In this document: one piece after another, positions 5,871 through 52,543 of the stretch | Layout: every line of letters begins with the position of its first letter | Position numbering within the stretch: position 1 is the first letter of the stretch | Source of the DNA: Thermoproteota archaeon | GTDB taxonomy: Archaea > Thermoproteota > Thermoprotei > Thermofilales > B9-G17 | Reading direction: 5' to 3' | DNA: 64,000 nucleotides | Assembly (NCBI GenBank): GCA_029258885.1 | Contig: JAPDJW010000003.1 | Location: forward strand, 64,001-128,000 | The notes under the pieces: generated by a model | The model's database searches: none | Seen by the model: only the letters and a program-made list of their open reading frames with translations | What the model was told of the DNA's origin: nothing | Position numbers and translations under genes: made by a program

Positions 5871-6547
5871 CTCTCCACACCAGCTATGCATCCATCAACC
5901 AAGCGAACGCGCATAGTTAATCCAGCAATTTTAGGTGGAGCATGGGATACTAGGACGATAGTCATGCCCTTGCGATTAAGCTTATACAGTAGGTCGGCTA
6001 CAAACCTCCTCGAATCATCATCCAGTGAGCTAAACGGCTCATCTAGGAGAAGAAGCTTTGGGTCCCTAGAGAGAGCCCTAGCTAAAAACACTTTTTGCTG
6101 TTGTCCTCCACTCAACCTCCCGATAGGTCTGTCGCTGAGCTTATCTATGCCTAACAGCTTAAGCACCTCATCAACCCTCTTCCAATCGTCCCTGCTCAGC
6201 CTACCTAGGGCTCTCTTTGATGCAAGGCCCATAGCAACAATCTCCCTAACCTTAAACGGTTCGTCAGGTTTTTTCATGAAGTCCTGCGGAAGATAACTAC
6301 ACATCATCCTAGCCTTATACGGGCTTCTAACCATATCGTGGCCGAATACCTTAACTATTCCGCTGACCGGTTTAAGTATCCCAAGTATCGTTTCAAGAAG
6401 CGTTGTCTTGCCTGAACCATTTGGACCGGTAACTAGAACATAGTCCCCAGCATTAATTTCTAAGCTAATATTTCTTATTGCTGGCCTATTCTCTCCCGAA
6501 TAAATTGTTGTCACGTTTCGTAGCTCAACCGCTGGGTCTAGCACCAT
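5858..6547 (-). CDS. metal ABC transporter ATP-binding subunit
   Basis: GPNGSGKT, LSGGQQQ, LLLLDEP, SH motifs; next to the permease. Confidence 0.95.
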   Translation of the reverse strand: MVLDPAVELRNVTTIYSGENRPAIRNISLEINAGDYVLVTGPNGSGKTTLLETILGILKPVSGIVKVFGHDMVRSPYKARMMCSYLPQDFMKKPDEPFKVREIVAMGLASKRALGRLSRDDWKRVDEVLKLLGIDKLSDRPIGRLSGGQQQKVFLARALSRDPKLLLLDEPFSSLDDDSRRFVADLLYKLNRKGMTIVLVSHAPPKIAGLTMRVRLVDGCIAGVERCSS

Positions 6548-30912: not shown

Positions 30913-33876
30913 ATGTTCAATAAAACTCTGCTCACAGTAATAATTATAGTTCTTATATTACATATTCAACTGCTTCACGCCAAACCTAAGAGCTACAGTG
31001 TTATTATATTTAGAGTGTATGGTGCGCCAGGAAAAATTAAAGCTTCAATAAATATAGAGGGAATAGGGACCTATACGAATATTTCAACAAGCAAAGGAGT
31101 TTTATGCTTCTATATACCGGGAGGCTTTAAAGATAGAATATTATATGCTGAGCTAACTATTGAAGGTAAATGGTATATATCACTACATGGAGAGCCCACC
31201 TATACTAAAGTTTACATAGACGGTAGGCGTAGATGGATTAAAGAGTACCCTGAGGTTCTATATTTAATAAATATTAGCGATTATCCAAGGAATATTTCAA
31301 GGTACTATGTTAAGATCACCCTCATAAAGGATCAGGAATATTCGCTTAATGGAACCACATATACTTTTTATAGGGAAATAGAGTTACATCTTAGGAAGCC
31401 TAGGTTGTTTATAACTAAATCTGTACGCATTACTTTAGATAATCCATTTAGGATAAGGATATTCTTCAGGAATTTAATATTTAATTTAGATAATTCCGTA
31501 TTTGTATGTCCACCTGAAGCCCCTGAGGCTCAAGTCTTATTATCTATGAATGTTCCAGCCAGTTCGGGAACATATTCTGATGAGTACACTTTCAATGTAT
31601 CCTTAATCGACCTACCAACTTATGGAGGATTTTTCGATCTAAGAACATACCTAATTCGTAAGATAGGTAATATTATAGTTGAGAGATATGGGGAGATGGT
31701 CGGCTTAAGTAGGTTCTTAGGCGTAAGCGCAAAGGTATATGAGTATAAGTTACATGCTATTAAGGGTTTACTTAATGCATCATGTTATATGTCAAAGAGC
31801 GGTAGTCAAGGATTTAATACAGCTTTAACAAAGGCTGTTGCCATATACTTCGAGCTAAGAAGTAGCTTAAGACATGCTATGCTTCAATCTTTCCTTTATA
31901 TGCCTATGGTTATTGCCTGCATTTTTATTTTCTCTTCTATAATTTCAAAGATATTTATAGAGAAAAGAAGGTATATTGTTACTGCATTAGTTTTTATTGC
32001 TATATTAATGATAATGTTCACATATTCCTACGAATTTAGGCTCTTCATATATACTTGGAGAGAACTGTCAGAACCTTACTCAAGCCTACAGCTTATACCG
32101 GGAGCAATAAGATATAACTATATTCTTGCTGGAGCTTTTACATTACTTCTCGGACTTTTCGCTTCAGTTTTCTTCTCCTATATAATACTATCTTCGGATA
32201 GACTAAACTATACATATCTCATTTTTAAGCGGAGGAAACTTAGACTAGCGCTTATAATAGTGACTGTTTCCATAGTTTCCTCAGCCATCATAGTTCATGG
32301 AGCTTTCATAAGCGGTCCAGTTGAAAAGGTGAGTTACAGGAGCCAATATTCTGAATACTACTTCATCACGTTTTATGGTTACCTCATTAATAGGAAATAT
32401 ATTCAAACAGTTGATGGAATAGTTCTAAAAGACTTAAGCAAATATACCTATCTTAGCCTGGGAGAATATCTCTGGATCTCTAATTTCTCCAGCGACTCTA
32501 ATGTAGTGGCTAAGAAGATAGTTAAGGTAAGCTATGGCGATAAAACAACTTATTTAAATGCCTATGCACTAAATCTAAGCTTTACAGCTAAATATCTAGA
32601 ATTTTATAGGTATGTTAACGGGTCTATAAACGGTGCGCTGCTTAGTAGCAGGGCATTTAATGAGCTGAACATATCTATTGGTAATTCTATTTCAGTTGAC
32701 GGCATTAGCTACGTAGTTTCAGGTTATTTCAACTATAGCATAATTAACTTGAAGGATTTGGACGGGGACCCGCTTTTCCGTGATCCAGTTAAAGGCGTAT
32801 TTGAAGCTCCTGATCTAATAGTTCCATTAAATGCTATAGACTCTACGTGGGCGATTATAAAAATTAGTATAATACTTAATTCGCTCAACGACATATCTAA
32901 AGCCCTTACGTATATAAGGGAAGGAGGCACAGTCATCAGGGGAATTGCTGAGCCTGATGGTTTTAATATAGTAGGCTATACTTATAGCTGCCTAATAGGC
33001 GGGGAGGGCGGGATAGTGGAAAGGGTATATGTGGATCTTCAGGGCGCGATAGTTGGCGATTGGATCGTACAAGCGGTTATAGTAGCCATATCCGTTCTTA
33101 TGATATCAATTAATGCTTTAGCCAGCTCAATTGAGAGGAGAAGAGAGTTTAAAACAATTTCATGTCTTGGAGCAAATCCAAGCTATATAATCGTTGAAGT
33201 TATATCGGAGGGTGCATCCATAGGTATCATTAGTGGTCTATTAGGATACTTTGTAGGAGAGATACTAGTATTTGCATACTGGAATATTTTAGGGACGGCT
33301 ACAATGTTTCCTCGAGTCCATATGGGTAGCTTAGTGTTAGCTCTACTAGTATCTATGATTTCAACTATTATGGGTTATCTATTGCCAGCTAGGAATGCTA
33401 TAAAAAATATTATTCCAAGCCAGCTAATAGAGAGGAGAAAGGGTAAATTCATCAGGACTTCGAGTAGTGAAATAAAGCTTACGCCTATTATTAAGTTAAA
33501 GTCTGATGAACTAAACATGTTTAAGGATTTCATGTTAACACGTTTTGTTAGATCATTGAATGAAGAGGGATTATACGGAATACGCATATATGACGTTAGG
33601 CTAATAGAGGATGAGAAAGTGCTGAGAATTGTTATGAATGGATATTTCAAGAGCCCATTTACATCCAAGAACATTGAGTTAAATATAATTACGATCCTAA
33701 AGCTTGATGAGGAGATGCTTCAGCCAGTTTTTGTAATAAAGTCAAAATACTTAAACCTAATGTTCTCGAGCGATTTAATAAATTTAATTAATAGAATAAG
33801 GGAGGCTTTAATGGAGTATATAAGTTTCAAGAAGGAAAAGCTTTTCATAAAGAGGATTCCTGTCGGGAATGCCTAA
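30913..33876 (+). CDS. large MacB/FtsX-type permease (987 aa)
   Basis: Signal peptide, ~330-aa ectodomain, TM bundle, MacB-like external domain, SIERRREFKTISCLGANP FtsX motif, cytoplasmic C-tail. Confidence 0.8.
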   Translation: MFNKTLLTVIIIVLILHIQLLHAKPKSYSVIIFRVYGAPGKIKASINIEGIGTYTNISTSKGVLCFYIPGGFKDRILYAELTIEGKWYISLHGEPTYTKVYIDGRRRWIKEYPEVLYLINISDYPRNISRYYVKITLIKDQEYSLNGTTYTFYREIELHLRKPRLFITKSVRITLDNPFRIRIFFRNLIFNLDNSVFVCPPEAPEAQVLLSMNVPASSGTYSDEYTFNVSLIDLPTYGGFFDLRTYLIRKIGNIIVERYGEMVGLSRFLGVSAKVYEYKLHAIKGLLNASCYMSKSGSQGFNTALTKAVAIYFELRSSLRHAMLQSFLYMPMVIACIFIFSSIISKIFIEKRRYIVTALVFIAILMIMFTYSYEFRLFIYTWRELSEPYSSLQLIPGAIRYNYILAGAFTLLLGLFASVFFSYIILSSDRLNYTYLIFKRRKLRLALIIVTVSIVSSAIIVHGAFISGPVEKVSYRSQYSEYYFITFYGYLINRKYIQTVDGIVLKDLSKYTYLSLGEYLWISNFSSDSNVVAKKIVKVSYGDKTTYLNAYALNLSFTAKYLEFYRYVNGSINGALLSSRAFNELNISIGNSISVDGISYVVSGYFNYSIINLKDLDGDPLFRDPVKGVFEAPDLIVPLNAIDSTWAIIKISIILNSLNDISKALTYIREGGTVIRGIAEPDGFNIVGYTYSCLIGGEGGIVERVYVDLQGAIVGDWIVQAVIVAISVLMISINALASSIERRREFKTISCLGANPSYIIVEVISEGASIGIISGLLGYFVGEILVFAYWNILGTATMFPRVHMGSLVLALLVSMISTIMGYLLPARNAIKNIIPSQLIERRKGKFIRTSSSEIKLTPIIKLKSDELNMFKDFMLTRFVRSLNEEGLYGIRIYDVRLIEDEKVLRIVMNGYFKSPFTSKNIELNIITILKLDEEMLQPVFVIKSKYLNLMFSSDLINLINRIREALMEYISFKKEKLFIKRIPVGNA

Positions 33877-35945
33877 CTTTTTAAATACAGGATAATACTC
33901 CTTGGAGGTATTTTCAGTTTTTCACCATTTAACTTAAAGCTGGAATCTTTGTCTGTGTAGTTTATAATCAATATCACCCTATTATCGCCTAACCGCCATG
34001 CGGAGATTAGAACAGGTTTTGTCTTTAATTTAACTACCTCTACTTCGTGGGGCAGCGTGTAGATTGATCTCCTAAGCAACCTTATATCGAGTTCATCTTC
34101 GATTTCAGCGCATAATTTATCAATATATCCTCCGAAGATGTATGGCCTTAAAGCCCCATACATGAGGGCTAAATTAATGAAAAACTTGATTTCTTTAACA
34201 TGTTTCTTAAGTACTTCAAGCGTTAGGTTGTGTATTGTTGGGATACAGCCCCACGAGAGAGCCCTCGAAGTCTCTAATGAAAATTGAAGTTCCTTATCAT
34301 ATAGTGGCTTATAGGAAAGCTCTGGCTTTTTATCTTCAGGCCATAGTTCATCGTAAGGAGGTTTATCCGTAAGCATTGCATAGCTTCCATAGAATAGTAT
34401 GTAGCCATTATATACGTAGTTAAAGAGTGGGATGGGACGCCATTTACCATGTATGGCTCTATACCTGCCGTACCTTTCTGAACTATTATCCAGCACGAGG
34501 AATAAGTGGAATAGATCCAAGTATGCCTCAGAGCACTCCTCGGTTGCTAAAATAACATCTCCTTTAACCTCCCTATATATTTCCTCTATTATGCGTCGAT
34601 ACCCCTCAACCCAGTAATTTCCACCGCCCAAACTGTGACCATGCTCTTTATCATAGCAGAGGGGAGGGGCTGCTGCTGCAATTTGATCCAGATATACTCC
34701 ATCAACTCCGTATTCAAGTACAAGCTTCTTAACCATGCTAACGATCTTGTTCCTCCAAAAGCCTGTATAAGGACACATCACAGCCATTGGGTGATCCATG
34801 AATCTATTATAGTGCTCCTCATACAGTTCACCAGCAGAATTCTTAGTAGCATATTTATATGCCTTTTCATCTGTCCAGCTTTTACACGTTGTATCCCATA
34901 GTCTAGCATTAACGTAGATTATAGTTACGAAGCCCCTTTCACGTAGTTCCTTAACAGTTTCAATAAACTTATCCTCTCCATCTCTGGGAGGAAAGTATTC
35001 GGGGACGTTAACATCGTAGGGATTTGAATGCCACCAGTGCCACATTAGACCTATTCTTCCGTAAGGGGCAAGGTGTCTAAATCTTATCGCTGGATCAGCG
35101 ACTTTATCACATCTGCCCCTATTCCAGATCCAACAAACAACTTCCTTAAGCCTCTCAGGAAAATCGTCTCTATTTATTATCTTGCCCCGCCTACACCACC
35201 ACTGCTTTAAGCCCCATCTCCTATACTTATCCGCAGCATCCATCCAGTTGCCGTCAAAGGGCAGTATATGCATGCTATATGGAATCGTTAATAAGCTACT
35301 ACCAATGCCTTCATCTGGAGGAAAGTATGTAAAACACACACTCTTCCCTGAGGATATTCTTAGCTCCTTAACGTAGCCCTTGCTATCGTCAAGGAACGCT
35401 ACTAATCCGCTTCTCCCAATACTATAGCCGAAGAACTGCATTGATAGGGGAGACGGATACCTGTATTTTAAGTAGTGTTTCTTTAAGGTCTCCTGAGGCT
35501 TAAAGACTTCTATGCCTTGATGATCAGGTATTATCAATGAGGCACTTAAACTATCGCTGTTTCCAAGATGGATAAAAGGATAAGATATTTCGCGTATCTC
35601 GAGACTGGGGGCTTTAGTTACCATTAGCTTAAGCTTTACTCCTCCGTATTGGCTAGGGCTAAGGGAAGCTACTACCTCCTTGATTTCTTTAAATGGAAAC
35701 TCTCTCCATTTTAAATATACTATATCTCTCTCGTGTTCGCATGTAAAATATTCGGCGGATTTCGAATCTACGTCTTTTAGAGATTTTATCAGCCACAGCT
35801 CTTTTTCTTCGTCAATTCTAGATATAGTTACTTTCTTCTCTAGATCCTCTATAGCTCTAATGCATCCCCTATTACCTAGCTCAATACCTATTTTTCCGAA
35901 CCTAAAAAATATATTATTTGAATCTCTTTGAGCTGAATTTATCAA
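33873..35945 (-). CDS. putative glycoside hydrolase (DUF6259-like, TIM barrel)
   Basis: N-terminal beta-sandwich, WHWW...PEYFP, YVNARLWD, GVDGVYLDQ, TEECSE; no signal peptide. Confidence 0.7.
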   Translation of the reverse strand: MINSAQRDSNNIFFRFGKIGIELGNRGCIRAIEDLEKKVTISRIDEEKELWLIKSLKDVDSKSAEYFTCEHERDIVYLKWREFPFKEIKEVVASLSPSQYGGVKLKLMVTKAPSLEIREISYPFIHLGNSDSLSASLIIPDHQGIEVFKPQETLKKHYLKYRYPSPLSMQFFGYSIGRSGLVAFLDDSKGYVKELRISSGKSVCFTYFPPDEGIGSSLLTIPYSMHILPFDGNWMDAADKYRRWGLKQWWCRRGKIINRDDFPERLKEVVCWIWNRGRCDKVADPAIRFRHLAPYGRIGLMWHWWHSNPYDVNVPEYFPPRDGEDKFIETVKELRERGFVTIIYVNARLWDTTCKSWTDEKAYKYATKNSAGELYEEHYNRFMDHPMAVMCPYTGFWRNKIVSMVKKLVLEYGVDGVYLDQIAAAAPPLCYDKEHGHSLGGGNYWVEGYRRIIEEIYREVKGDVILATEECSEAYLDLFHLFLVLDNSSERYGRYRAIHGKWRPIPLFNYVYNGYILFYGSYAMLTDKPPYDELWPEDKKPELSYKPLYDKELQFSLETSRALSWGCIPTIHNLTLEVLKKHVKEIKFFINLALMYGALRPYIFGGYIDKLCAEIEDELDIRLLRRSIYTLPHEVEVVKLKTKPVLISAWRLGDNRVILIINYTDKDSSFKLNGEKLKIPPRSIILYLKS

Positions 35946-38900
35946 TATATTCCCTCCTCATTTCAGGCTTTAGCGATCTCCAAACTAGAAGCTGCTTCCT
36001 AATGGCGTCTATAAAGTTCCTGCTTGATAACACCCACGTATCATATACTCCGCTAAGCCTTCTAAGCATAATATCTAGGAAGTGTCTATCCCCTCTCCTT
36101 ATCACGGTTATAGTGGCCTTAGTTATTATCTTAGCCTCATAGGGGGCAAGCGATAAAACTATGTCAACTGAAGGAACCTCGGGATCGAACTTAACTTCCC
36201 TTATAATAAACTTCTCAACGGTTTCCCTCTTATGAAGCTCGGCATATTCGTACAGGAATAGCAGTGCGCCGCCCGCCTCTAGGATGTTCGTGAATACGAA
36301 TGGAAGAGGTATTTCCCATTCATCGCCTCTTGGCTTTGTGGGGAGCTCCCACTTTCTAGCTAGGGATGGCGTTACAAGCCTAGCGGCCTTGTAAATCGGG
36401 TATATGGAGGGGATTAGGGTTGCTGCCATGGCGAAAATCATCGAGAAGAGCACGGCCATTGAGGTATAGTTTACTATGAATGTCTCTGGAAGTACGTTGA
36501 ATGCCTTAAGTATGTGATTGAAGAGTAGGCCTAGCGTGTATCCCACTAGCGTCGATATGAAGGCGAAAACTAATAACTCGCCTAAGAATAGGAAAATGAC
36601 GCCGGACGGCGGAAGACCTAAGGCTGAATAAATACTCATTTCCCTCTCCCTCATCTTGAGGACATTCAACATGCTGTTTAATATAGTGCCTGATCCGATC
36701 AGCAGAGGTATTAGTATGAATGCAAGCCCCCTAAACTCGTAGGCCGGAAGCCTAGAGAACAGCGAGACCTTGCCATTATAGCTATAGTATACTTCAAGAT
36801 CTAGGCTCATTGCGATAGTTCTGGCGATATCCTCTCCCTCCTCCTTCAGGTATATAGATATGCTCGATACATGTCCACCAAGTCTTTTAACTAAATTATG
36901 AGGAAGTATTAGTACTTCGCTAGCTGATAGGGGTACATAGCTATCGGATCCTCCGGGAACCGATTTCTTGAGGGTTGCAACCATGAGATTTGGATTAAAT
37001 GGCATAATGCTCTCCTGATCGAGATCCAGGTAGCTGTTAATTACATCTGATGCAACTATGCCTACAACCTTAAGCTTCATACCCTGCCACCACACCCAGT
37101 CTCCAACGCTCACGTTAAGTTTCTCGGATACCTTATCCGCCAGGATACATGCATAGTAGTCGTACTCATCGAAGCCCCTGCCCTCTACGATGCTTGACCT
37201 GAACAATTCATTATATTTAAATTCACCCGGTGAGAGGCCTAGGGCAGCATATATCACAGTTTTCTTATCTTTTGCTTCCAAATATGCAAACACCTGGTCT
37301 CCAAATACGGATTGAGGATAGTACCACAGTCTTGGAGCTACCGCGCCTCTATCGCCTACCATCGACCTAAGGTATTCTATTATTGAGTAGCTTAGAAAGT
37401 CCTTAGTAGTCTTCATCCCCTTTCTCATGTATATTCCGTTATACCTGGCTTCTACTGGGAGTTCGGTGCGCTTTAGCGTTACGAAGCTTTCAATTGAGGT
37501 TAGTGAAACCATGCTTAAAACGATGATTATTATTGTTAAGAATAATAATATGCTCAGGAACTTTCTCCTCCTAATATTTCCCATTGCAACGTGTACCGAG
37601 TGGATTATTATTGACGTTCTCTCCCTCTCAACTACGTGATGTTTAAGTATCTTCCTTCTGATCATTGATCCCATTTCTATTGCAGACTTCGTTAACACGA
37701 TACCGACTATTCCGAAGAAGAGAAGGGTCGATAGGCCAAGGTAGGCGATCGGTATATTTGCTACAAGCCTAAGGCTTGGATGAAGGAAATAAAATATCAC
37801 CAGGATGAGTGATGCGATAATTAGTATTGTAAAAAGCCTTTTAAGTCCTTCAAACTGGAGGGTTATTCTCTCTATAAAGAATACGGATGGTATTAGTAGG
37901 AAGAAGAAGAATACGCTTATAATTGCGGGTTCATTAACTAGCCTCATGACCTCACTATAGTATACCATCCCAAGGCTCCACGAGGCTAGGGCATAAGCAT
38001 ATGCTTTACTATATTTCCTTTCCTTCAGACTGGCTAGGCATAGGCTATGATACTCTTCCATGGCCTTTATGTTCTCCTCTAAAGCTATGTTCTCGATCAT
38101 ATTCTTCTTTAGGTTAGAGTATCTGGTTGAGATTATTGTGGCTATGTCGTTGGAGGCATTAATTGCTGAGAGTATTATCTCAGCGCCTCTCTGAACCTTA
38201 TAGCCGTAGCCGTCTGGATGAAGCTGTGACGAATTAATAAGAACTACTGAAGTTCTCTTTTCAGGTCCTACCTTCAATATAAGTGCAAACCTTGAACCCG
38301 GAGGCGTGAATATAGTCGCTATTCCCTCGCTGGGTACATAGACGAAGCCATACCTTATGAACTCGCTTAGGGTGGAGACATCGTATATCATAATCGTTGG
38401 AACCATATTTACCCATGGAGTATTAAGGAATCTAGAATCTAAAAGCACGGGCTCGGATATTCTGGATATATCGTAAAGATCAATGATTGTTGCCGAAGCG
38501 CAGGAGAAGACTACCGTTGTAAGCTGGTATGGATGTGAATCCACTAGACTCCAGAATAGTATTGATTTCGAGCCATACTGACCTAGATCGGGGGCCTTAA
38601 CTATGAGGCCTGTATTCCCATCTAGAAGGTATGCTTCGGTATAATATCCTATACCTTCCTTCTGCAGTATTTGTACTCCGCCAGCTCCCCAAAGCACGGT
38701 CCCGCCTATGGCTGAGCCTACTCCTAGACCATGCACGACAAACCCGCCGGTTTCATTACATTTAACTATGATGTGCATGAAGGGGTATGTTGAGCTTGGA
38801 CTCCTTGTAACCACTGCAAGGGCATATGGAACTCTGTCGTACCAGTTCTTAGTGTAATTAAATTCTAGTACCTTACCGTAGGCTGTTATAAACCCTGCTA

Positions 38901-40365
38901 GCTCGCCAGCCGGGCTATAGAATATTCTACTGGGCTTAACCATGCTCCAGTCAACGGAGAATTCGGGATCGTTCACAAAGCCATAAATTATTGCCGATGA
39001 AGCTAATGCTTGAATCCTAATATTCTCAAGATTGACGTATTTGATATCGCTCTTAGGAGTACCCCATCTATGTCTCAGTGAACCGCAGGTTCTAAGTGCA
39101 AGCCCCATTCCATGGGCCATGGTAACGGGCTCTATATCCAGCATAAATGGCCCAGAGATATCATCCCACCATCCCTCAACCACTAAGCCGTTCTCCACTA
39201 TACTCCCTAAATCTACGCCCAGCTGAGCCGATGCATCCTTAAGGTATTTATCGAAAACGTTTGGTATAACGTATTTCTGATACTTACTTAGAACTTGAAC
39301 GCTACCATAATCGTAGAAGTATCCTCTATAAGTTAATAATAGCCTATTATTATCCGACGATAGATCCAAGCCTACTACTACAAGTAGCTTCCTCTCACCA
39401 CTAATTATATCTTCAGAACCAAAGATAGCTTTCTCCATAAACTCCCTTGCGCCAGCAAGTGCCTGCCAGTGTCCCGAAACGAATACTAACCATAAGGTTC
39501 TCAGTGGTCTATTTTTAGAGAAGTATTCAGCTAAAAGGAGGAGTAGTGAGGGCGAAGTAGCTTCGTCCGCCCCAGGAGCTATAGCTGGGACAACAGACCA
39601 AGTATCGTAGTGTGCAATAACTGCTACTATCTCATCCTTCCTCTCACCCTCTATCTCCGCAACTATAATACTTGACTTTACAATTTCATAGTCCATGTTC
39701 ACGTGTATCCTAATTACCGAGTGATTTTCAGCTAACTGCTTAAGTAAAGCTCCTGTTTCACGATCAACATATAATCTGGGGAAGTACACGGGGGCTGAGG
39801 ATATCTTAGCTATAGCCTCCGGATAGCTGGTTTCATCAGGCTCTATAAATATAACCCCCCTGGCGCCAAACCTTAGCAGGTTTATCCAATTCTTTCCAGA
39901 GTTGAATTCAATCAGGGCTATGGAACCATATATATCCTTGTCGTCCAAATCCTCTAAATCCCCATCCCCAACATAGACAAGCCGTCCCTCAATTCCGGTT
40001 GGAGGAGTTTTACATGTCTGAACGTAGTTAGGCCAAAGAGCATAGGCGTTAAGCCTTAGACTTACGGGTTCAATAACTTCTATGTAAGAGCTCCTGTCAA
40101 GCGGCACCGTAACCTCGTATTCAATGATCCTATAACTCACGTTTATTTCCTTAAGTCGACTTACTATGAAGTTAGCTGCATCATTGCATCCACTGTACCC
40201 CGTAACCCTTGAGCCAAAGCTGGATAGCTTCTCAATATATTCTTTTAGCTTATTTACGTCGATACTATTGGCTAAACCTTCATAATCCATGGGTGGTGTT
40301 GCCTTAACATATGCTTGTAGGGCAAGTAAAAGTATTAGTAGCATTAGAGCTATTCTTGCCTTCAT
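35914..40365 (-). CDS. giant MacB/FtsX-type permease with N-terminal PA + M28-fold ectodomain
   Basis: Signal peptide MKARIAL (ATG 40365 preferred to 40425); SSFGSRVTGY, PA domain, AHYDT, APGADE, SGHW, LDLSSD; REREMSIYSALGL FtsX motif. Confidence 0.85.
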   Translation of the reverse strand: MKARIALMLLILLLALQAYVKATPPMDYEGLANSIDVNKLKEYIEKLSSFGSRVTGYSGCNDAANFIVSRLKEINVSYRIIEYEVTVPLDRSSYIEVIEPVSLRLNAYALWPNYVQTCKTPPTGIEGRLVYVGDGDLEDLDDKDIYGSIALIEFNSGKNWINLLRFGARGVIFIEPDETSYPEAIAKISSAPVYFPRLYVDRETGALLKQLAENHSVIRIHVNMDYEIVKSSIIVAEIEGERKDEIVAVIAHYDTWSVVPAIAPGADEATSPSLLLLLAEYFSKNRPLRTLWLVFVSGHWQALAGAREFMEKAIFGSEDIISGERKLLVVVGLDLSSDNNRLLLTYRGYFYDYGSVQVLSKYQKYVIPNVFDKYLKDASAQLGVDLGSIVENGLVVEGWWDDISGPFMLDIEPVTMAHGMGLALRTCGSLRHRWGTPKSDIKYVNLENIRIQALASSAIIYGFVNDPEFSVDWSMVKPSRIFYSPAGELAGFITAYGKVLEFNYTKNWYDRVPYALAVVTRSPSSTYPFMHIIVKCNETGGFVVHGLGVGSAIGGTVLWGAGGVQILQKEGIGYYTEAYLLDGNTGLIVKAPDLGQYGSKSILFWSLVDSHPYQLTTVVFSCASATIIDLYDISRISEPVLLDSRFLNTPWVNMVPTIMIYDVSTLSEFIRYGFVYVPSEGIATIFTPPGSRFALILKVGPEKRTSVVLINSSQLHPDGYGYKVQRGAEIILSAINASNDIATIISTRYSNLKKNMIENIALEENIKAMEEYHSLCLASLKERKYSKAYAYALASWSLGMVYYSEVMRLVNEPAIISVFFFFLLIPSVFFIERITLQFEGLKRLFTILIIASLILVIFYFLHPSLRLVANIPIAYLGLSTLLFFGIVGIVLTKSAIEMGSMIRRKILKHHVVERERTSIIIHSVHVAMGNIRRRKFLSILLFLTIIIIVLSMVSLTSIESFVTLKRTELPVEARYNGIYMRKGMKTTKDFLSYSIIEYLRSMVGDRGAVAPRLWYYPQSVFGDQVFAYLEAKDKKTVIYAALGLSPGEFKYNELFRSSIVEGRGFDEYDYYACILADKVSEKLNVSVGDWVWWQGMKLKVVGIVASDVINSYLDLDQESIMPFNPNLMVATLKKSVPGGSDSYVPLSASEVLILPHNLVKRLGGHVSSISIYLKEEGEDIARTIAMSLDLEVYYSYNGKVSLFSRLPAYEFRGLAFILIPLLIGSGTILNSMLNVLKMREREMSIYSALGLPPSGVIFLFLGELLVFAFISTLVGYTLGLLFNHILKAFNVLPETFIVNYTSMAVLFSMIFAMAATLIPSIYPIYKAARLVTPSLARKWELPTKPRGDEWEIPLPFVFTNILEAGGALLFLYEYAELHKRETVEKFIIREVKFDPEVPSVDIVLSLAPYEAKIITKATITVIRRGDRHFLDIMLRRLSGVYDTWVLSSRNFIDAIRKQLLVWRSLKPEMRREYIDKFSSKRFK

Positions 40366-40421
40366 TGATCGACACCTGATATATTTATCTGAGAACATAT
40401 TAATTTGTATGTTCATAATCG

Positions 40422-42389
40422 TCACCAGGGAAGTATCCAGGTAGCCTTAGACAACATAACGATCGACGTGGCTATGCCCACTACGACTGCTTCGCCTGTA
40501 GCTACTCCAGCTACTATAACGCCTCTATTCTTCCTCCACCAGTTCTCCCCGTACATTCTGGCCAGAAATCTGGCGATAATAGCGCCTATAATAAGACTTA
40601 TCGAGTTTGCGGGCAGTATATATGTCCCGGCGACGAGGCCGACTATGGAGAAGGGGAAGTTAAGGATTCTACTTAAAGTATCCCCGATAAACGCTACAGC
40701 TAACACCAGTATGAAGGAGTACAATATGGTGTCAACCTTCACTCCTATCTGTCTGCTAATCCACAACGCGCTTGTAGCTACGCTTACAGGCCACTGTATG
40801 TTCGTGAATGGGTATAGCGACGAGGGTATTGGAGCTATGCTCCAGAAGAAGGATACGTATATGAAGCTAAATACCGTATAGAGTACGACGGCCGTAAAAT
40901 ATGCCTTAAAGAAGTCCTCGGGCCTTGTCTCTGTTAGGAAGGCTGCCTTTATGGTGTTTCCCCATTGGGGCGAAGCTGTGAAAGGTAGGCCAAGCTGGGA
41001 TACTGTCGGAGTTAAACCGCTGAACATGGGGGAGAAGAGCCATGCATCCACCTTAGGATATCCTGAGCCAATTACGGCAAGCTGCCATATATAGGGTATC
41101 GATATCGGATAGCCTGATTCAGCTATGCTTCTTGAAGCAACCAGCGAGTAGGTGAATCCTCCCCCTATAGCGATTAAGATCGCCAGCCATAGGGGGAAGT
41201 CGGGTACTATTAGATGAAACAGCAGTATTGATCCCAGAGATCCTGCTAAATAGAGCGTAGCTAGCGTTTTCAGACTTATATATCCCTTCCTTAAGACGTC
41301 AGTCCTAAGTCTGGATAGGCTCTTAAATGCCGATACAATGCTTCTTCTACTCTTAAATATTGAGAACACGGCTACCGCTAGTGCAAAGCCTATAAATGGA
41401 GTTATCCATACCCTGAGGAAGGATCTTTGGTAAACGGTTGATATGGTCATGCCTCTTGCCCATTCAATAGCCCATTCCTTAAAGTAATTAGCTAAGTAAG
41501 TTCTAGTTAGATAATTGCCGAAAACCCATACAGCTATTGATCCTATAAACATATAGACCACGGTGTGGAATGGAATTAAGAATGCTCCAGTAAATGTTAG
41601 AGGATCTGTTGCGAGGCCTAAGATAGCGCCCGGAAGGATATTTTCGATCCCAAAGGGGCCAGTAGTCAAATCGAGCCATGGAATTGGTATTACAACAATT
41701 CGGGTATTAAATAGACCTAACGAAATCGTCGGAACCCCATAGAGTATTATCGAATATATGGCGCCTAAAATAGCACTTGTTGTGAATATTCTCATCCTAT
41801 CCTCCTCTCTCTCAGCTAATGTAATGCACATCTGGGCTGGAAACTCGGCAAAGGGATAGGGTAGCTTCTCTTCCTCTATGAAGATGTAGGCCATTATGTA
41901 TGCTAACGCAACTTCCTGAATAAGCCATAAAAATATCTGAACCAAATATAGTGAGACTGGTATTATCCACTTTGAATTAAGAAAGCTTCTAACGGCTGTA
42001 GCTGGTAGTCTGGGAACCCACCATTCAGGAATTACTTCACTTAGAGGTTTTCCAGAATAAGGATCGTAGAAGGACTTCGATATGGGCGAAGTGAAGAAGT
42101 AAAATCTATAGACGAACTCTAAAAATGGAGCTCCTAAGAGAACTGGCGCTGCGGCCTGATATATTATGAATATCTCCTGCTTAGTTAGGGGCTTATCCAT
42201 AAGCCTCGAAATTTCTGTAAAAAGTATTGCGGTTATGTATGTTATAGCGCTTGCTAGGATAGCACCTGAAGTAAGCTGAATATATATCGATACCGGGAGT
42301 AGGAGTGAAGCTGCAACAAATATCGCAAGAAAAGATCTAAATGTATATCCTTTTTTTAAAACATATTCTTCACTCACATAATCACCCAT
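40422..42389 (-). CDS. OPT-superfamily-like multipass membrane transporter
   Basis: Over 12 TM; GYTFRS, KQEIF, EEEKLPYP motifs. Confidence 0.75.
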   Translation of the reverse strand: MGDYVSEEYVLKKGYTFRSFLAIFVAASLLLPVSIYIQLTSGAILASAITYITAILFTEISRLMDKPLTKQEIFIIYQAAAPVLLGAPFLEFVYRFYFFTSPISKSFYDPYSGKPLSEVIPEWWVPRLPATAVRSFLNSKWIIPVSLYLVQIFLWLIQEVALAYIMAYIFIEEEKLPYPFAEFPAQMCITLAEREEDRMRIFTTSAILGAIYSIILYGVPTISLGLFNTRIVVIPIPWLDLTTGPFGIENILPGAILGLATDPLTFTGAFLIPFHTVVYMFIGSIAVWVFGNYLTRTYLANYFKEWAIEWARGMTISTVYQRSFLRVWITPFIGFALAVAVFSIFKSRRSIVSAFKSLSRLRTDVLRKGYISLKTLATLYLAGSLGSILLFHLIVPDFPLWLAILIAIGGGFTYSLVASRSIAESGYPISIPYIWQLAVIGSGYPKVDAWLFSPMFSGLTPTVSQLGLPFTASPQWGNTIKAAFLTETRPEDFFKAYFTAVVLYTVFSFIYVSFFWSIAPIPSSLYPFTNIQWPVSVATSALWISRQIGVKVDTILYSFILVLAVAFIGDTLSRILNFPFSIVGLVAGTYILPANSISLIIGAIIARFLARMYGENWWRKNRGVIVAGVATGEAVVVGIATSIVMLSKATWILPW

Positions 42390-42436: not shown

Positions 42437-44449
42437 CTACATGAGCTTAGGCAGACCTATCATGAATGTTGCTAGGAACGCTACTAGGGAGGCGTTTACT
42501 CCGTAGCCTACTAGGTATCCGATTATAAACGGTGTAGCCTTCTCTTCAAACAGTTTTGATCCTCCAATTCTAAGTATTATATATTTGATTATTAGTGAGA
42601 ATATTGGCGGTATCCAAACCCATGTTGTAGTTGGTAATATTAGGAATGCCAATGGATCTATGAAGAACCACGCAAACTTTGTCCTAAGGAAGTAGAGTAT
42701 GAAGGTAATTATTATTCCGCCTATCATTAGACCATATCTCTCAGCCGGATCGAATGCTAATATTGTTGGAGTCCCCTTAACCCATGAATATACTTCAGGC
42801 GATACCCACATATAGAAGGGTGGGCCTGGGGGTCCATTGTTAGCTAAACCTCCGATTGCGTGGTACCACCATATAACTAGCGGTGTAGTTATGATTGCAG
42901 CGGATATAATGGTTATCACTGCGGTGAAGAATAAGTCTCTTCCAAGAGTGTTTGTTGTGGGGCCGAGCCTATATATCTTAAACTGGTGGTGCATTGTAAG
43001 GTTGCTTATTCTCTGCCCGGTGTTAGCTGCACCAGTTACTAAGGTGAATGTAACTAATGCCGTCTGGTTTTCAGCTGGTGGAACTGGAGGCCATGCACCC
43101 ATTATTGCGCCAGCATCATATCTAAACCAGTTAAAGGCATGCCCATAGGGCATGAACTCGAAAGATACTCCCATAAGCCTTGTCCATCCATATAGCATTA
43201 GTATGTGGAGTATCATGAATACAAGTACTACTAGGAATGGAACACCGCTACCTAGTAAGAATATTAGGAACAATATTGATATAGCTACTGTGCCGACTGA
43301 TAGCAGCCTATATGATAAGCCGCTGTCCTCCATTTTAGCATACTCCTTATCCCATAAGGCCCTAAGTATATTCAGGAAGTGTTCCCTGTGGTTATAGACG
43401 ACCCACAGACCTACGCCGAGACCTATACCCCAGATACAGAATAGGTGCCACTTAAATGGACCATATCTTAAACCATAGTACGCGGCATTTGTCTCTACGC
43501 CCGGGCTATAGGGTAGTATTCCCGTGGTAACTCCTACTACTGGATATAGCACTGCGAATATAAACCAGCCTATAATAATTGTTATCAAGAAGTCAGTTGG
43601 CGTAAACATCCATATTAGAATGTCAGTAACTCTAACGTTTCCATAGAAGAAGGCTCCCGGAAGTATACCCTTAGTATAGGGAGTTAAGTCGATTGTGTAA
43701 ACGCCCAGATAGGCGGAAGAAGGTACGGTAGGTATGAAGTATCTTAGGGTATCTAAGAAGGTCATTAGGAATCCGAGCACGAAAGCAACCCAGAATATCT
43801 TAGTAGCCGTATTCTTAAAGTTAAATAGCCAAACCTTACCGTCAACCTCCTTAGTAGCATATTCTATTAGGTAGACGCCTGGAAGTATGCCGGGGAACGG
43901 AAGCTGCTCAACCTCTATCAGCGGTTTTCTAAGCCAGTATCCCCAGAATGTCTCGAACAACATGTAGAGTATAAGGAATAGAGTCCAGTAGATTATATGT
44001 GGCATCCATGCGCCCCAGTCCAGGTATCCGCCATTCCAGAAGTTTTCTAATGCAGTGCCGCTTGGAGAGAAGTATGGTGGTATCATATCCCATACATCCT
44101 TAAATGCCTCAGTATGCCTCATATAAACTGGAATAAGCTGAGCCCAACTGGGTATCTGGCAGGTGCTATAGGCGCCTGACATATATACTCCATATGTGAA
44201 TGTGTTAGCTACCAGGAAGAAGAGGGCGAAGAGTATAGCGTACTCTTGAGGAGCTAGTTTAATCTTATTCCTCAGTAGGTAGAGTATCACTATTACGACT
44301 ATGAAGGGTGGAGGGAACCATACCCTATAAGCCCACCATAGTGTAAGCGATGAGTTAATAATTGACTGGAAGAAGTTTAGTAGTACGACAATGGGTATCA
44401 GTACAATTATCCATGGTTTAAGATAACTCCTTCTAACTTCCTCTCCCAT
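42437..44449 (-). CDS. DUF6785-like multipass membrane protein (OPT-related)
   Basis: Over 12 TM; IEVEQLPFP, FFIDP, IGGSKLFEE; ATG 44449 after GGTG. Confidence 0.7.
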   Translation of the reverse strand: MGEEVRRSYLKPWIIVLIPIVVLLNFFQSIINSSLTLWWAYRVWFPPPFIVVIVILYLLRNKIKLAPQEYAILFALFFLVANTFTYGVYMSGAYSTCQIPSWAQLIPVYMRHTEAFKDVWDMIPPYFSPSGTALENFWNGGYLDWGAWMPHIIYWTLFLILYMLFETFWGYWLRKPLIEVEQLPFPGILPGVYLIEYATKEVDGKVWLFNFKNTATKIFWVAFVLGFLMTFLDTLRYFIPTVPSSAYLGVYTIDLTPYTKGILPGAFFYGNVRVTDILIWMFTPTDFLITIIIGWFIFAVLYPVVGVTTGILPYSPGVETNAAYYGLRYGPFKWHLFCIWGIGLGVGLWVVYNHREHFLNILRALWDKEYAKMEDSGLSYRLLSVGTVAISILFLIFLLGSGVPFLVVLVFMILHILMLYGWTRLMGVSFEFMPYGHAFNWFRYDAGAIMGAWPPVPPAENQTALVTFTLVTGAANTGQRISNLTMHHQFKIYRLGPTTNTLGRDLFFTAVITIISAAIITTPLVIWWYHAIGGLANNGPPGPPFYMWVSPEVYSWVKGTPTILAFDPAERYGLMIGGIIITFILYFLRTKFAWFFIDPLAFLILPTTTWVWIPPIFSLIIKYIILRIGGSKLFEEKATPFIIGYLVGYGVNASLVAFLATFMIGLPKLM

Positions 44450-44622
44450 AAGAAACACCAATGTAAAATAAAATTTTAAGTATTTAAGTTTGGATATTTT
44501 TATTAATCAAAAAATTTTTTTAAAATTTAAAAATATTTATATTCAAGAAAATAATATAAAATATGGTTTTAAATTTGCTTTAGAATAAAGATTTAGCATT
44601 AACTTGGAATTCTATTATTGAG

Positions 44623-44861: not shown

Positions 44862-45305
44862 GTGGAGTGTATGGAGTCTGATAAAACCTTTGAAGCTATT
44901 GCTCATCCATTAAGGATAAAGATATTGAAGTTGCTGGCAGAGAGACCTATGAGTTTCTCCGAGTTAAAGAGGAGGCTTGGAATAAAGAGTAGCGGTAAGC
45001 TGGATTTCCACTTGAAGAAACTAGACAACTTAATAGTTTTAGATGAAGATGGAAAATACACGTTGACTAGAGAGGGCTATGCGGCACTACAGGCTATTAT
45101 CACAATTAAAAGGTATGGATGGCAGAAGAGAGCCTTCATATTAAATACAGCAGTCTACATTGCGGTTATGATCTATACAGAGTGTGTTATAGTGTGGAGA
45201 GGATTTAGCCCGCTATACGTTGCTGTAATGGTGCTTACATCACTCTGGTACGTATACTACTTCTATGTATCTATTGTGAAGAGGAAGGTCTTTAAAGTAT
45301 GTTAG
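44862..45305 (+). CDS. ArsR-type HTH regulator with two C-terminal TM helices
   Basis: AIAHPLRIKILKLL...SFSELKRRLG...LDFHLKKL, then hydrophobic tail. Confidence 0.85.
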   Translation: MECMESDKTFEAIAHPLRIKILKLLAERPMSFSELKRRLGIKSSGKLDFHLKKLDNLIVLDEDGKYTLTREGYAALQAIITIKRYGWQKRAFILNTAVYIAVMIYTECVIVWRGFSPLYVAVMVLTSLWYVYYFYVSIVKRKVFKVC

Positions 45306-45346: not shown

Positions 45347-46273
45347 ATGGGGATGAGGGTTATTGAGGTTGAAAATTTAGCTAAAGAGTTCAATGGGAGA
45401 ACAGTGCTACGTGGGATAACTTTCCACGTTAGGAGGGGTGAGGTCTTTGGTCTACTTGGACCTAATGGTTCGGGTAAAACAACGACGATGAGGATAATTC
45501 TTGGATTGCTTAAGCCGACTTCGGGGAAGGTACGTGTTCTCGGCGGTTCGCTGGCGGACGACGCCAAGCTTAGGAGTAGAGTCGGCGTAGTGTTGGAGGG
45601 TGATGGCTTGTTTACTAGACTTTCAGCCTATGAAAATCTCGACTTTTACGCTAGAATCTACGGGTTAAGGGACGGTGTGGAGAGAAGAGAGAGGATTAGG
45701 GAGCTACTGGAGCTCGTAGGCTTATATGATGTGAGAAATATGAAGGTGGGTTATTTTTCCAAGGGTATGAGGAGGAGGCTTGCGCTAGCTAGAGCACTAA
45801 TTCACTATCCTGAAGTATTGCTTCTCGATGAGCCGACTTCTGGTTTAGACCCTGAGGCGAAGGCTATGGTAAGGGATCTGGTGATCAAGCTCTCTAGGGG
45901 TGATGGAGTAACAGTTCTCTATACATCCCATGACCTGAATGAGGTTGAAAAAGTATGCTCTAGGATAGCAGTGCTAGTGAAAGGTAGGATAATAGTTCAA
46001 GGTGTGCTTAACGACCTACTTGAGGAATGTAGCGGACAGGTAATGGAGGTATGTTTCACTAGTAGTGATGATGCGTCTAAAGCTTTCGAGTACTTGAGGA
46101 TGTTGGACTATGTACCAGAATGCAGGATGTATGGGAAAACTGTGCATCTGGTAACACTTGGCAATACACGCAGGCTTCTAAGAGACCTTGTGGAAATGAA
46201 CCTTGGAGTTGAGGAGGTAAGGAGGGTAAGGAGGACTCTCGAGGAGATATATCTAGAGCTTGTTAGGAGGTGA
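45347..46273 (+). CDS. ABC exporter ATP-binding subunit
   Basis: GPNGSGKT, FSKGMRRR, LLDEP, TSH. Confidence 0.95.
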   Translation: MGMRVIEVENLAKEFNGRTVLRGITFHVRRGEVFGLLGPNGSGKTTTMRIILGLLKPTSGKVRVLGGSLADDAKLRSRVGVVLEGDGLFTRLSAYENLDFYARIYGLRDGVERRERIRELLELVGLYDVRNMKVGYFSKGMRRRLALARALIHYPEVLLLDEPTSGLDPEAKAMVRDLVIKLSRGDGVTVLYTSHDLNEVEKVCSRIAVLVKGRIIVQGVLNDLLEECSGQVMEVCFTSSDDASKAFEYLRMLDYVPECRMYGKTVHLVTLGNTRRLLRDLVEMNLGVEEVRRVRRTLEEIYLELVRR

Positions 46274-46944
46274 ACTCAAATATGATAGGAGTTATTGTAT
46301 GGAAAGAGCTTAAGGAGAGTACGAGGGACAGAAACCTACTATCCAGTATAGTGGGCGTAGCAATACTATTAATGCTTTTAAATTTATCGTCGAGATTCCC
46401 AACCGTCAGTGTGGAGTTTCTTGTACTCTATATGGCGCCGTGTATAGGCGTTTTCATAGGATTTAGTATGAGCAGTAGATTTGTAAGGGAGAAGCGGGAG
46501 GGAACTATAGAGACTATGCTCTGTACTCCGCTGACGCTGAAAGAACTATGGCTTGGTAAAGTAATTGGACTAGCATTACCATCATATGCCGTTACCTTAA
46601 CCTCAATGCTTATTCTAGCATATTTTAAAGGCTATATCATGAAGGAGGCTATAACGATATATTTAACGCTGGCAGTGCCCATCCTCATAGCATCGGTTAT
46701 TGGTTTACTCGGATTCCTCTATTACGTCCTAGGTATGAGGCAAATACAAGCACTTAACTACCTAGTATTCCTTACATTATTCACATTATTCTTCGCATTA
46801 ACTAGGAGCTTAACGAGAGGGGTCATCACTATAACGTGGGAGATTATAGGAGCTGTGCTGGCCTTCTCAGCAATGATTCTGTACATAGTAGCCTATCTGA
46901 TAACTCGCCTAGACAAGGAGAGGATAGTAACCACACTAGACTAA
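46270..46944 (+). CDS. ABC-2 type exporter permease
   Basis: EKREGTIETMLCTP...GK motif; 6 TM. Confidence 0.9.
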   Translation: MNSNMIGVIVWKELKESTRDRNLLSSIVGVAILLMLLNLSSRFPTVSVEFLVLYMAPCIGVFIGFSMSSRFVREKREGTIETMLCTPLTLKELWLGKVIGLALPSYAVTLTSMLILAYFKGYIMKEAITIYLTLAVPILIASVIGLLGFLYYVLGMRQIQALNYLVFLTLFTLFFALTRSLTRGVITITWEIIGAVLAFSAMILYIVAYLITRLDKERIVTTLD

Positions 46945-51565: not shown

Positions 51566-52543
51566 TTGTTATTGATGGAAATTGACATATCGTTATATCC
51601 AGATAAAGACGTATACTATCCTGGAGAAGATATAGAAGCAGTTTTCAGCGTTCGAGGATTATCTGGGGAAAATGTGGAGGCTATTGAAGTGGGTTTTATT
51701 GGAAGGGAGATTATAAAGATCGGTGAAACTATTGGAAGAAGTAGACTAACCGACGAGAGGAGGAATACCATAGCAAACTATAGATACGCTCACAGACCAC
51801 AGCACATCGATGAGCTGGAGCGTAGATACAGGTTTACGATACCTGAGAACTCCCCGCCATCAATCCACCTAGCCAGCTCCGCCTTTCTAAGCTCCAGCTC
51901 CATTAAGGTAGATTATGAGCTCTACGTGGATATTAGGAGGCGTCTAAGGCCAGATTACCGTAAATCTAAGAATATAATAGTCGGTCTTAAGCCTCAATTT
52001 AAGGATTATGGAGGCCAGCCGCCATCTTTAAAGTTTAATGGCGAGAACATAGACTTCTATATGGAGCTTAGCAGAGAAACCGTATATCCGGGGGATAACG
52101 TAAGGCTATTTCTGAAATCCAGAAGACTCCTTAAAGTTAGGAAGATTAGGGTTGGAATAAGGAGCTATGCATGGGGGCTATGCGAGAAATACGGGGTAAA
52201 AATGCCGGTTTTCTCCTATCCCCTCCTGGAGTTGAGGCCAAGCGATATACCTCAATATGGAAGAGATCTCGATATAACGATACCCGATGGGGTCCCGCCC
52301 ACCTATAAAAGTAGATACTGGTGGACTTGGACGGAAATAGTCTTTGAGTTCCGAGGCATCGTAAGGGAAATTCTGAAGTTGAGTAGGGAGATTCCGGTGA
52401 ACTATAAGTATTTGAGGCCTAGGAAAATAATGCGCTATATCACGTGCCCATGGTGTAGTAGAAGTGTTCCTGAAGATAGCCTAAGGTGTCCATTCTGTAA
52501 CTATAATTTAGCGGGAATCCGTAGGCGTAAGGTCCAGAGCTAG
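51566..52543 (+). CDS. tandem arrestin-fold (SpoOM/Vps26/alpha-arrestin-like) protein with C-terminal zinc ribbon
   Basis: Two repeats YYPGE...RYRFTIP..SPPS...YELYV and VYPGD...LDITIP..VPPT; CPWC...CPFC. Confidence 0.7.
   Translation: MLLMEIDISLYPDKDVYYPGEDIEAVFSVRGLSGENVEAIEVGFIGREIIKIGETIGRSRLTDERRNTIANYRYAHRPQHIDELERRYRFTIPENSPPSIHLASSAFLSSSSIKVDYELYVDIRRRLRPDYRKSKNIIVGLKPQFKDYGGQPPSLKFNGENIDFYMELSRETVYPGDNVRLFLKSRRLLKVRKIRVGIRSYAWGLCEKYGVKMPVFSYPLLELRPSDIPQYGRDLDITIPDGVPPTYKSRYWWTWTEIVFEFRGIVREILKLSREIPVNYKYLRPRKIMRYITCPWCSRSVPEDSLRCPFCNYNLAGIRRRKVQS

Follow-up and report, generated by a model that had tools for sequence, protein, structure and literature searches.

The closest described relatives of the protein considered here are aminopeptidases in which a protease-associated (PA) domain is inserted into an M28 peptidase fold, such as Bacillus subtilis BSAP/YwaD (PDB 6hc6) and the Aneurinibacillus AM-1 enzyme (2ek8). 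Both enzymes are secreted and active, bind two zinc ions and have all five ligands (H, D, E, D, H) together with a general-base glutamate. The fold is also found in inactive proteins: the transferrin receptor (TfR1), the inactive member of M28B, is a membrane protein whose ectodomain likewise combines PA and M28 and which functions as a receptor, and nicalin, of the BOS complex, and nicastrin, of gamma-secretase, have inactive M28-like ectodomains within membrane-protein complexes. According to PMC4000134, MEROPS contains hundreds of uncharacterized non-peptidase homologues. Given these binding modules and non-peptidases, inactive M28 folds are a kind already known. Here we describe a member of this kind from a 64,000-nucleotide stretch of DNA of a Thermoproteota archaeon (the window; positions 64,001 to 128,000 of contig JAPDJW010000003.1, assembly GCA_029258885.1). 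A single gene (35914–40425, 1,503 codons from a GTG; this gene, its parts and its operon lie on the minus strand, and other strands are marked) encodes a PA-M28 head, a stalk and a MacB/FtsX-type membrane part. In contrast to 6hc6 and 2ek8, the head thus continues into a stalk and a polytopic membrane part, and it has His-Trp in place of their Glu-Glu pair and Gly in place of their distal His. We consider it moderately probable that this region is the noncatalytic head of an archaeal module for the uptake of oligomers.

An AlphaFold2 model of residues 40–520, built on 60 homologues, has a mean predicted local distance difference test score (pLDDT) of 95.4 and a predicted template-modeling score (pTM) of 0.94. 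Its closest structural matches are the PA-containing bacterial aminopeptidases BSAP (6hc6, Z 31.0) and 2ek8 (Z 29.0), followed by the PA-less Aeromonas aminopeptidase (1amp; Z 28.5, root-mean-square deviation 2.5 over 266 residues) and by GCPII, the transferrin receptor and glutaminyl cyclases (Z about 25–27), and a search of the ESM Atlas agrees with these PDB matches. The two PA-M28 aminopeptidases are also the closest by sequence profile (7e-30 for 2ek8 and 1e-22 for BSAP), with structural alignments over 375–387 residues and the PA domain at the same insertion place, and Pfam calls Peptidase_M28 (PF04389) on residues 254–405 with an E value of 1.6e-9, above the curated cut-off. Because Pfam, profile and fold matches all point the same way, the M28 resemblance is not due to chance, and the head has the alpha/beta fold of M28 (MH clan). 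The model, fold matches and alignments place the N-terminal part of this fold, which includes a conserved GSRVTGY motif, at residues ~43–129 (40039–40299), the inserted PA domain, with approximate borders, at residues ~130–245 (39691–40038) and the C-terminal part, which harbors the degenerate active site, at residues ~246–500 (38926–39690). The PA insertion had been proposed in the initial annotation of this DNA, which was made from the letters of the sequence, and it is borne out: PA-M28 structures align with the head over 375–414 residues, the PA domain of ZNRF3 matches the family profile and 11 of the homologues listed have a PF02225 call. PF02225 is not called on the window protein itself at E <= 0.01. 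Despite this, the PA-containing structures are the best fold matches, and the insert is therefore real.

To place the active-site residues, the register was anchored on the invariant glycine of the EExGLxG motif, which corresponds to G325, using alignments of the single sequence and of the profile with M28 enzymes of known structure. With the Aeromonas aminopeptidase as reference, H97, D99, D117 and D118 correspond to H272, D274, D287 and E288; A150, the general base E151 and the ligand E152 correspond to G318, H319 and W320; and D179 and H256 correspond to D354 and G455. Thus the AHYD string (residues 271–274; 39604–39615) supplies the equivalent of the Zn2 ligand H97 in H272, which is histidine in 157 of the 239 homologues aligned, and D274, which is aspartate in all of them. 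In the GADE string (residues 285–288; 39562–39573), D287 takes the place of the bridging ligand D117 and is aspartate in 108 of 239, while E288 is glutamate or aspartate in 234. D354 (39364–39366), the counterpart of the Zn2 ligand D179, is retained as aspartate in 194 homologues. In contrast, the xAEE motif is replaced by SGHW (residues 317–320; 39466–39477), which puts H319 at the general-base glutamate and W320 at the Zn1-ligand glutamate, and the M28 motif xxYHTP is replaced by HRWGTP (residues 452–457; 39055–39072), which puts G455 at the Zn1-ligand histidine, a position occupied by histidine in only 5 of 239 homologues.

The substitutions at the two former glutamates are a property of the family. 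Position 319 is His in 206 of the 239 homologues, Tyr in 20 and Phe in 9, and is never Glu or Asp; position 320 is Trp in 145, Tyr in 39, Asn in 25, His in 19 and Asp in 1, and is never Glu. In ~85% of the family an aromatic residue or His stands at each of the two sites, and the pair may form a binding platform. The Zn1 site (the equivalents of D117, E152 and H256) is complete in none of the 239, D274 and G325 are invariant, and, compared with active M28 enzymes, the general-base glutamate is absent and the five-ligand co-catalytic set incomplete, the active-site aspartate (D274) being present. Judged from these residues, the head can have no activity as a co-catalytic zinc peptidase. The initial annotation had called it a pseudo-peptidase on the strength of the strings AHYD, GADE, SGHW and HRWGTP, and the call is well supported, with no Glu at 319 or 320 and no homologue able to form a Zn1 site. 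All four strings are present, and the reading of SGHW is exact. In HRWGTP, which lies outside the interval 39360–40365 in which it had been placed, the ligand position is G455, with H452 three residues earlier; H452 is not conserved, and most homologues have Leu, Phe, Ile or Gln there.

That annotation had also offered a rewired, His-rich metal site. Another view is that the head is still an enzyme, one in which a mononuclear site (H272, D287 and D354), with H319 as acid/base, would trim peptides or glycopeptides or carry out some other hydrolysis before uptake. The Zn2-type triad is indeed complete in 79 of the 239 homologues (33%), the window copy included, 67 of these 79 also have H319, and a histidine is found at position 455 or 456 in 30 of 239. 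Mono-zinc proteins with an M28 fold exist as well, among them the glutaminyl cyclases (Z ~25–26) and CA_C2195 (PMC4000134). The eight paralogues in the genome of the window vary at the old ligand positions, and only the window copy and that at C1:197037 keep H272, D287 and D354 together with H319. An E151H form of the Aeromonas aminopeptidase was reportedly studied by Bzymek et al. in 2005, and the title of PDB 2anp calls the Glu151-to-His enzyme "functional"; both zinc sites are intact in that mutant, however, whereas the Zn1 site is complete in no member of the present family. The triad is, in addition, missing from two thirds of the family and from six of the eight paralogues, among them the one at C1:209059. 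H319 is kept in 67 of the 79 homologues with the triad (85%) and in 139 of the 160 without it (87%), and its conservation is therefore not tied to metal; its substitutes are Tyr or Phe rather than acids. We thus consider a surviving enzyme unlikely. The His-rich site does not stand as a family property, with H452 variable and H319 independent of the triad, but the window copy, in which the triad and H319 coexist, may retain a residual metal site.

If the head is not a peptidase, it is nevertheless maintained by selection. A word-indexed search found 158 relatives of ~1,500 residues in Thermoprotei, Ignisphaera, Bathyarchaeia, Brockarchaeota, Nitrososphaerota and Asgard groups, with no database names other than "M28 family peptidase," "FtsX-like permease" or "hypothetical." An exhaustive search with the head profile returned 1,126 clusters (50% identity, E <= 1e-30), a figure that includes ordinary PA-M28 peptidases; the best 150 clusters all lie below 1e-142 and are nearly all ~1,500 amino acids (aa) long. 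Across the family the head is the most conserved domain, with a median identity to the window protein of 39% compared with 28–36% elsewhere, and among the paralogues it is the most conserved extracellular part (30% compared with 20–26%). The PA-domain residues W180, K207 and FPRLY 215–219 are conserved at >= 93%, are family-specific and differ in 2ek8. These data indicate that the head is under purifying selection and not decaying, as fits a selected pseudo-peptidase. DNA of the gene is present in hydrothermal-vent and marine-sediment metagenomes from several studies; no RNA dataset appears for it in the dataset listing.

Selection of this kind bears on the idea that the head is a mere structural spacer, or an anchor to the envelope (S-layer), with no ligand of its own. 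The head-on-stalk design would suit such a role. The region beneath the head, modeled from residue 495 to 840 (pLDDT 86.8), consists of two beta-sandwiches and a three-helix stalk, and its resemblance to the S-layer anchor SlaB goes only to Z 8.4. A spacer would, however, tolerate more change than is seen in the head, which has the highest conservation of all extracellular parts and conserves the family-specific polar and aromatic residues W180, K207, R217, Y219, H319 and W320; we regard this explanation as highly improbable. The two beta-sandwich domains themselves (residues ~501–750; 38176–38925) are transthyretin/CnaB-like and among the most variable parts of the protein. The fold matches of the modeled region, which include the transthyretin-like domain of carboxypeptidase D and NOMO (Z 7.8) besides SlaB, are generic beta-sandwich and helical ones (Z <= 9.2), and for this reason no carbohydrate-binding family can be named for the middle domain. 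They are followed by the helical stalk (residues ~751–832; 37930–38175), the third helix of which continues into the first membrane helix.

The gene does not stand alone. In the window, four minus-strand genes are arranged head to tail, in the order DUF6785+DUF6784, OPT, M28/FtsX and DUF6259. The OPT-family transporter (40422–42389) lies directly upstream of the M28/FtsX gene, and the DUF6785+DUF6784 membrane protein (42437–44461) is the first gene of the operon. Both were identified with Pfam and both are conserved partners in related loci. Indeed, in 39 such loci, retrieved from metagenomes and genomes with a 16-sequence alignment, OPT adjoins the gene in 34, three of the five exceptions being cut contigs, and a DUF6785/6784 gene is nearby in 31. 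The source genome (2.10 Mb, 99.9% complete) contains eight paralogues of the whole protein, with an OPT paralogue adjacent to all eight and a recognizable DUF6785 gene present at seven. DUF6785 is itself a distant relative of OPT, as one paralogue matches OPT at 3e-6 over nearly its full length. Because the head cannot work as a co-catalytic zinc aminopeptidase and yet is selected, and because two carrier genes consistently accompany its gene, we take it as the noncatalytic surface element of an uptake module.

The cargo of this module is suggested by the genes that surround it. Six of the eight cassettes (the M28/FtsX gene with its carrier partners) adjoin distinct sugar-catabolic genes. A GH130 mannoside phosphorylase, a GH3, a GH57 and, in the window, a DUF6259 protein each lie at a separate cassette; another is flanked by GHL10, an AnmK-type anhydro-sugar kinase and a URO-D-like protein, and one, at C2:104616, by galactokinase, Gal-1-P uridylyltransferase, melibiase and an NAD-dependent epimerase/dehydratase-family protein, which by context is the Leloir epimerase. 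Among 21 further loci, the most frequent neighbor families are URO-D (5), GFO/IDH/MocA (5), the exo-muramidase NamZ (3), DUF6259 (2) and GHL10 (2), and Peptidase_M1 also occurs twice. The sugar families, which were picked after inspection and so do not make an unbiased test of proximity, have one copy each in the genome, or hardly more, and none of the listed genes is farther than 3.3 kb from a cassette; the cassettes with 10 kb on each side make up ~11% of the genome. No signal sequence is present in the phosphorylase, the kinases, GH3, melibiase or DUF6259, whereas hydrophobic anchors occur at the N and C termini of GH57 and GHL10. Cutters outside, an import step and finishers inside together give the layout of a locus for utilization and import. 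In the window, the variable slot for a cargo enzyme is filled by DUF6259 (33873–35945), a glycosyl-hydrolase-like protein whose gene overlaps the 3' end of the M28/FtsX gene by 32 nucleotides (nt); it has no sequence relative in the PDB, and the ESM Atlas returned only its own family.

The same carriers could instead point to a peptide importer, in which the head would be a receptor for peptide ends, a fossil of aminopeptidase substrate binding that feeds the OPT carriers, with the sugar genes there by coincidence. This would sit well with the OPT family match and the M28 ancestry of the head; peptidases of the M20, M1 (two loci), C39-like and, weakly, C25 types do occur at some loci, and those with NamZ, AnmK and GH3 could indicate muropeptides, which bear peptides. 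However, it leaves six of eight cassettes in the genome beside sugar-specific genes, one of them a full Leloir set with melibiase, and these are the only copies in the genome or nearly so. Furthermore, aromatic residues replace the acidic center that would hold a peptide N terminus through metals. A peptide importer is, on this evidence, very unlikely.

The membrane part raises a different question, that of energy. After the stalk come three extra membrane helices (residues 833–851, 864–882 and 893–911) and a Lys/Arg-rich cytoplasmic linker (37558–37929), then transmembrane helix (TM) 1 (residues 957–975) and an extracellular core domain of MacB type (36736–37557), and then FtsX TM2–TM4 (36391–36735; helices within 1231–1341), all located by hydropathy scan. 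Pfam calls MacB_PCD on residues 962–1149 (30.6 bits, cut-off 27) and FtsX on residues 1235–1349 (47.7 bits, cut-off 25.5), so that the MacB/FtsX layout is present, in which TM1 and TM2 enclose an extracytoplasmic core domain and the FtsX helices come next; this MacB_PCD and FtsX unit is what had initially been recorded as a permease. From hydropathy and the positive-inside rule, residues 43–832 and the MacB core domain would lie outside the cell and the tail inside, with seven TMs in total. The tail is a conserved cytoplasmic domain (residues ~1346–1503; 35917–36390) with no known relative: searches gave no Pfam family, no PDB sequence match at E <= 10 and no ESM Atlas match. It is nonetheless the best conserved part among the eight paralogues, and 12 of its residues, several Trp and Arg among them, are invariant across 44 homologues. 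At the other end of the protein, the hydropathy scan marks residues 21–42 (MKARIALMLLILLLALQAYVKA; 40300–40365) as a signal peptide or N-terminal anchor, and translation likely starts at M21 (40365), giving 1,483 aa as in the database record of the same protein (P0002); the interval of the initial annotation has this start coordinate as well.

MacB/FtsX-type modules normally require an ATPase. Here, an ATP-binding cassette (ABC) ATPase is found beside none of the eight paralogues and in the flanks of only 2 of the 39 related loci, 6–9 kb away, whereas four small FtsX genes (224–397 aa) in the same genome do adjoin an ATPase gene. Outside the window, at C2:342683–343423, lies an orphan MacB-type ATPase with no adjacent FtsX, 73% identical to one beside the small FtsX gene C2:377040; it is a candidate for a shared energizer, acting in trans, of the large FtsX proteins. 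Such proteins are numerous. A second FtsX-type protein in the window (987 aa; 30913–33876 (+)) is convergent on the operon and has no adjacent ATPase, the genome holds several more of 957–1141 aa, and at L044:3813–6683 a large FtsX-type protein with a CarboxypepD_reg domain directly follows the OPT gene of another cassette.

An FtsX-type module beneath a dead peptidase fold has a known use. In FtsEX-EnvC, a dead M23 peptidase under such a module switches on extracellular hydrolases, and by analogy the protein might be a regulator and not an importer, with the FtsX part moving the dead M28 head and thereby activating or tethering enzymes at the surface or remodeling the envelope. The MacB_PCD and FtsX architecture, the strong conservation of the FtsX helices and the cytoplasmic tail, the membrane-anchored GH57 and GHL10 beside two cassettes and the orphan ATPase all speak for such a regulator. 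The constant partners of the protein are, however, two carrier-type membrane proteins and not hydrolases, most of the adjacent enzymes are cytoplasmic, and an ATPase is linked to none of the eight paralogues and is absent from 37 of 39 loci. We therefore judge a regulator of this type quite unlikely and return to the uptake module.

In an uptake module, the M28/FtsX protein would act together with the OPT and DUF6785/6784 carriers on oligomers produced outside the cell, which, judged from the adjacent enzymes, would be mostly oligosaccharides or amino-sugar fragments. The head would be displayed away from the membrane on the two beta-sandwiches and the helical stalk, anchored by the seven-helix module of MacB/FtsX type, and would capture cargo through the aromatic pair in the old active center or dock a common partner. 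Cargo would then be handed on to the OPT-type carriers. Those OPT carriers that have been studied are proton-driven. The FtsX part could act as a passive scaffold, or as a mechanotransmitter powered in trans. This scheme presumes that the three proteins associate physically and that transport is inward, and it makes presumptions on the ligand of the head and on how, or whether, the FtsX part is energized. A receptor role for the head, which the initial annotation had put forward as that of a receptor for the substrate or partner of the locus, is plausible, as its gene is tied to OPT-type transporter genes and often to sugar enzymes. A more specific version, in which the trio would be a previously unrecognized archaeal importer of oligosaccharides and amino-sugar fragments, duplicated per substrate and working without a dedicated ATPase, with the dead head as surface receptor or gate, and in which it would be an archaeal counterpart of the transporters of bacterial polysaccharide utilization, seems to us possible and somewhat short of likely.

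Several observations weigh against an uptake head for sugar oligomers. To the triad that the window copy keeps with a histidine at the acid/base position, the title of 2anp, the ATPase requirement of MacB/FtsX-type modules, the choice of sugar families after inspection and the peptidases found at some loci must be added that two of the eight cassettes have no recognizable sugar enzyme nearby and that OPT carriers (TC 2.A.67) are known for peptides and metal chelates and not for sugars. In addition, the head is too conserved across the cassettes to be an obvious determinant of specificity. Among paralogues in different substrate contexts no other extracellular domain is as conserved as the head, and this favors a common partner or a generic role over substrate specificity. 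The beta-sandwiches, the stalk and the MacB core vary more than the head, and specificity may thus lie in those parts or in the carriers.

Other features of these loci are recorded here. URO-D-like genes recur beside the cassette (L042:5830–6921, L001:2956–3972 and five more loci). Some cassettes adjoin genes for an AnmK-type kinase (L042:4586–5788), NamZ, GH3 and a BadF-type kinase, a set of neighbors that hints at salvage of bacterial cell-wall fragments by these archaea. At C1:194926–215419 (L042 and L043), two cassettes stand nearly back to back, with two DUF6785 genes, a GHL10 gene and a gene for a secreted PQQ-propeller/Ig-domain protein between them. Elsewhere in the window, genes for a GH12 endoglucanase-like protein (6525–7715 (-)), a GxGYxYP putative glycoside hydrolase (986 aa; 58647–61607 (+)) and a transglutaminase-like protein (1827–3920 (+)) are found, and the source organism looks like a polysaccharide degrader. 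Divergent from the operon and ~400 nt upstream of it lies an ArsR/DUF7347-type helix-turn-helix gene (44862–45305 (+)), a possible local regulator, which is followed by an unrelated ABC-2 transporter pair (45347–46944). A 158-aa open reading frame at 40405–40881 (+), antisense to the 3' part of OPT and overlapping the first 21 nt of the M28/FtsX gene as counted from the GTG, is most likely a chance frame. Finally, a 325-aa protein encoded at 51566–52543 (+) matches Arrestin_C (E 3e-7, above the cut-off), which is unusual in an archaeon.

What is new in this family is the fusion of an M28 fold to a MacB/FtsX-type module, its fixed pairing with two genes of the OPT superfamily with no linked ATPase, its multiplication per genome beside different sugar pathways and its spread across TACK and Asgard archaea. 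The literature searched, with partial coverage and including PMC8630151, yielded no description of the family or of the trio, and no paper on DUF6785, DUF6784 or DUF6259. The family is large, as many as eight of its loci being present in a 2.1-Mb genome, and its database names are all generic. Archaea of sediments and hot springs, including Bathyarchaeia, Brockarchaeota, Thermoproteota and Asgard archaea, are believed to feed on debris from plants, algae and microbes, and little is known of their uptake of the breakdown products. Should the trio prove to be an uptake machine, it would make the flow of carbon in these archaea accessible to tests, give the OPT superfamily and the MacB/FtsX fold a new function and be a prokaryotic addition to the M28 folds recycled as binding modules in the transferrin receptor, nicastrin and nicalin. 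If the head is merely a decayed enzyme, it would be an ordinary non-peptidase homologue.

Comparison with the inactive M28 proteins shows how far the likeness goes. The parallel with the transferrin receptor and nicastrin, drawn when the head was first annotated, holds as an analogy, although by sequence profile the head is nearer to the bacterial PA-M28 aminopeptidases. The transferrin receptor has also lost the EE pair, which reads SAGD in the alignment, and matches the head at Z ~26 and the head family at a profile E value of 1e-12. As the head is closer in sequence to the bacterial aminopeptidases than to this receptor, activity was probably lost independently in the two. The transferrin receptor and GCPII have a C-terminal helical dimerization domain where the window protein has two beta-sandwiches, at residues 495–750, and the receptor is a type II protein with a single N-terminal anchor, whereas the window protein combines a signal-type N terminus with a C-terminal 7-TM module. 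In nicalin, the motif AHYDAFGVAPWLSLGAD resembles AHYDTWSVVPAIAPGAD (profile E 4e-10), and its partner NOMO has beta-sandwich repeats like the stalk region of the window protein, a likeness of generic fold. Nicalin and nicastrin are, however, eukaryotic, have a single C-terminal helix and other partners, in contrast to the polytopic window protein. We also weighed a direct origin of nicalin or nicastrin from this family and rejected it, as the active bacterial aminopeptidases are much closer to the family (7e-30 for 2ek8 compared with 4e-10 for nicalin).

A further M28-like non-peptidase, CA_C2195 (DUF4910; PDB 3k9t), is tied to polysaccharide metabolism (PMC4000134). It shares with the head an M28-like fold, a PA-derived insert, a replaced catalytic glutamate (Pro in CA_C2195) and a sugar-related gene context. 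It differs in being soluble and cytoplasmic, in its winged helix-turn-helix domain and in its one retained zinc site (Asp195, His189 and His324), and it has lost the active-site aspartate (Ser191), which the window protein keeps as D274.

The membrane part and the cassettes as a whole find their counterparts elsewhere. With MacB, FtsX and LolCE (type VII ABC systems) the window protein shares a MacB_PCD between TM1 and TM2 and the FtsX helices that follow, but it adds three extra helices, an N-terminal ectodomain of ~800 residues and a novel cytoplasmic tail, and lacks a linked ATPase. FtsEX-EnvC embodies a similar idea, a dead peptidase fold with an FtsX-type module, with the difference that the partners of the window protein are carriers and not hydrolases. 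OPT carriers are not known to work with an accessory surface protein. The closest parallel in function is with the bacterial polysaccharide utilization loci built on SusC/SusD: although these have no sequence relation to the archaeal cassettes, whose host has no outer membrane, both repeat the same combination of a surface binder, a transporter and variable enzymes.

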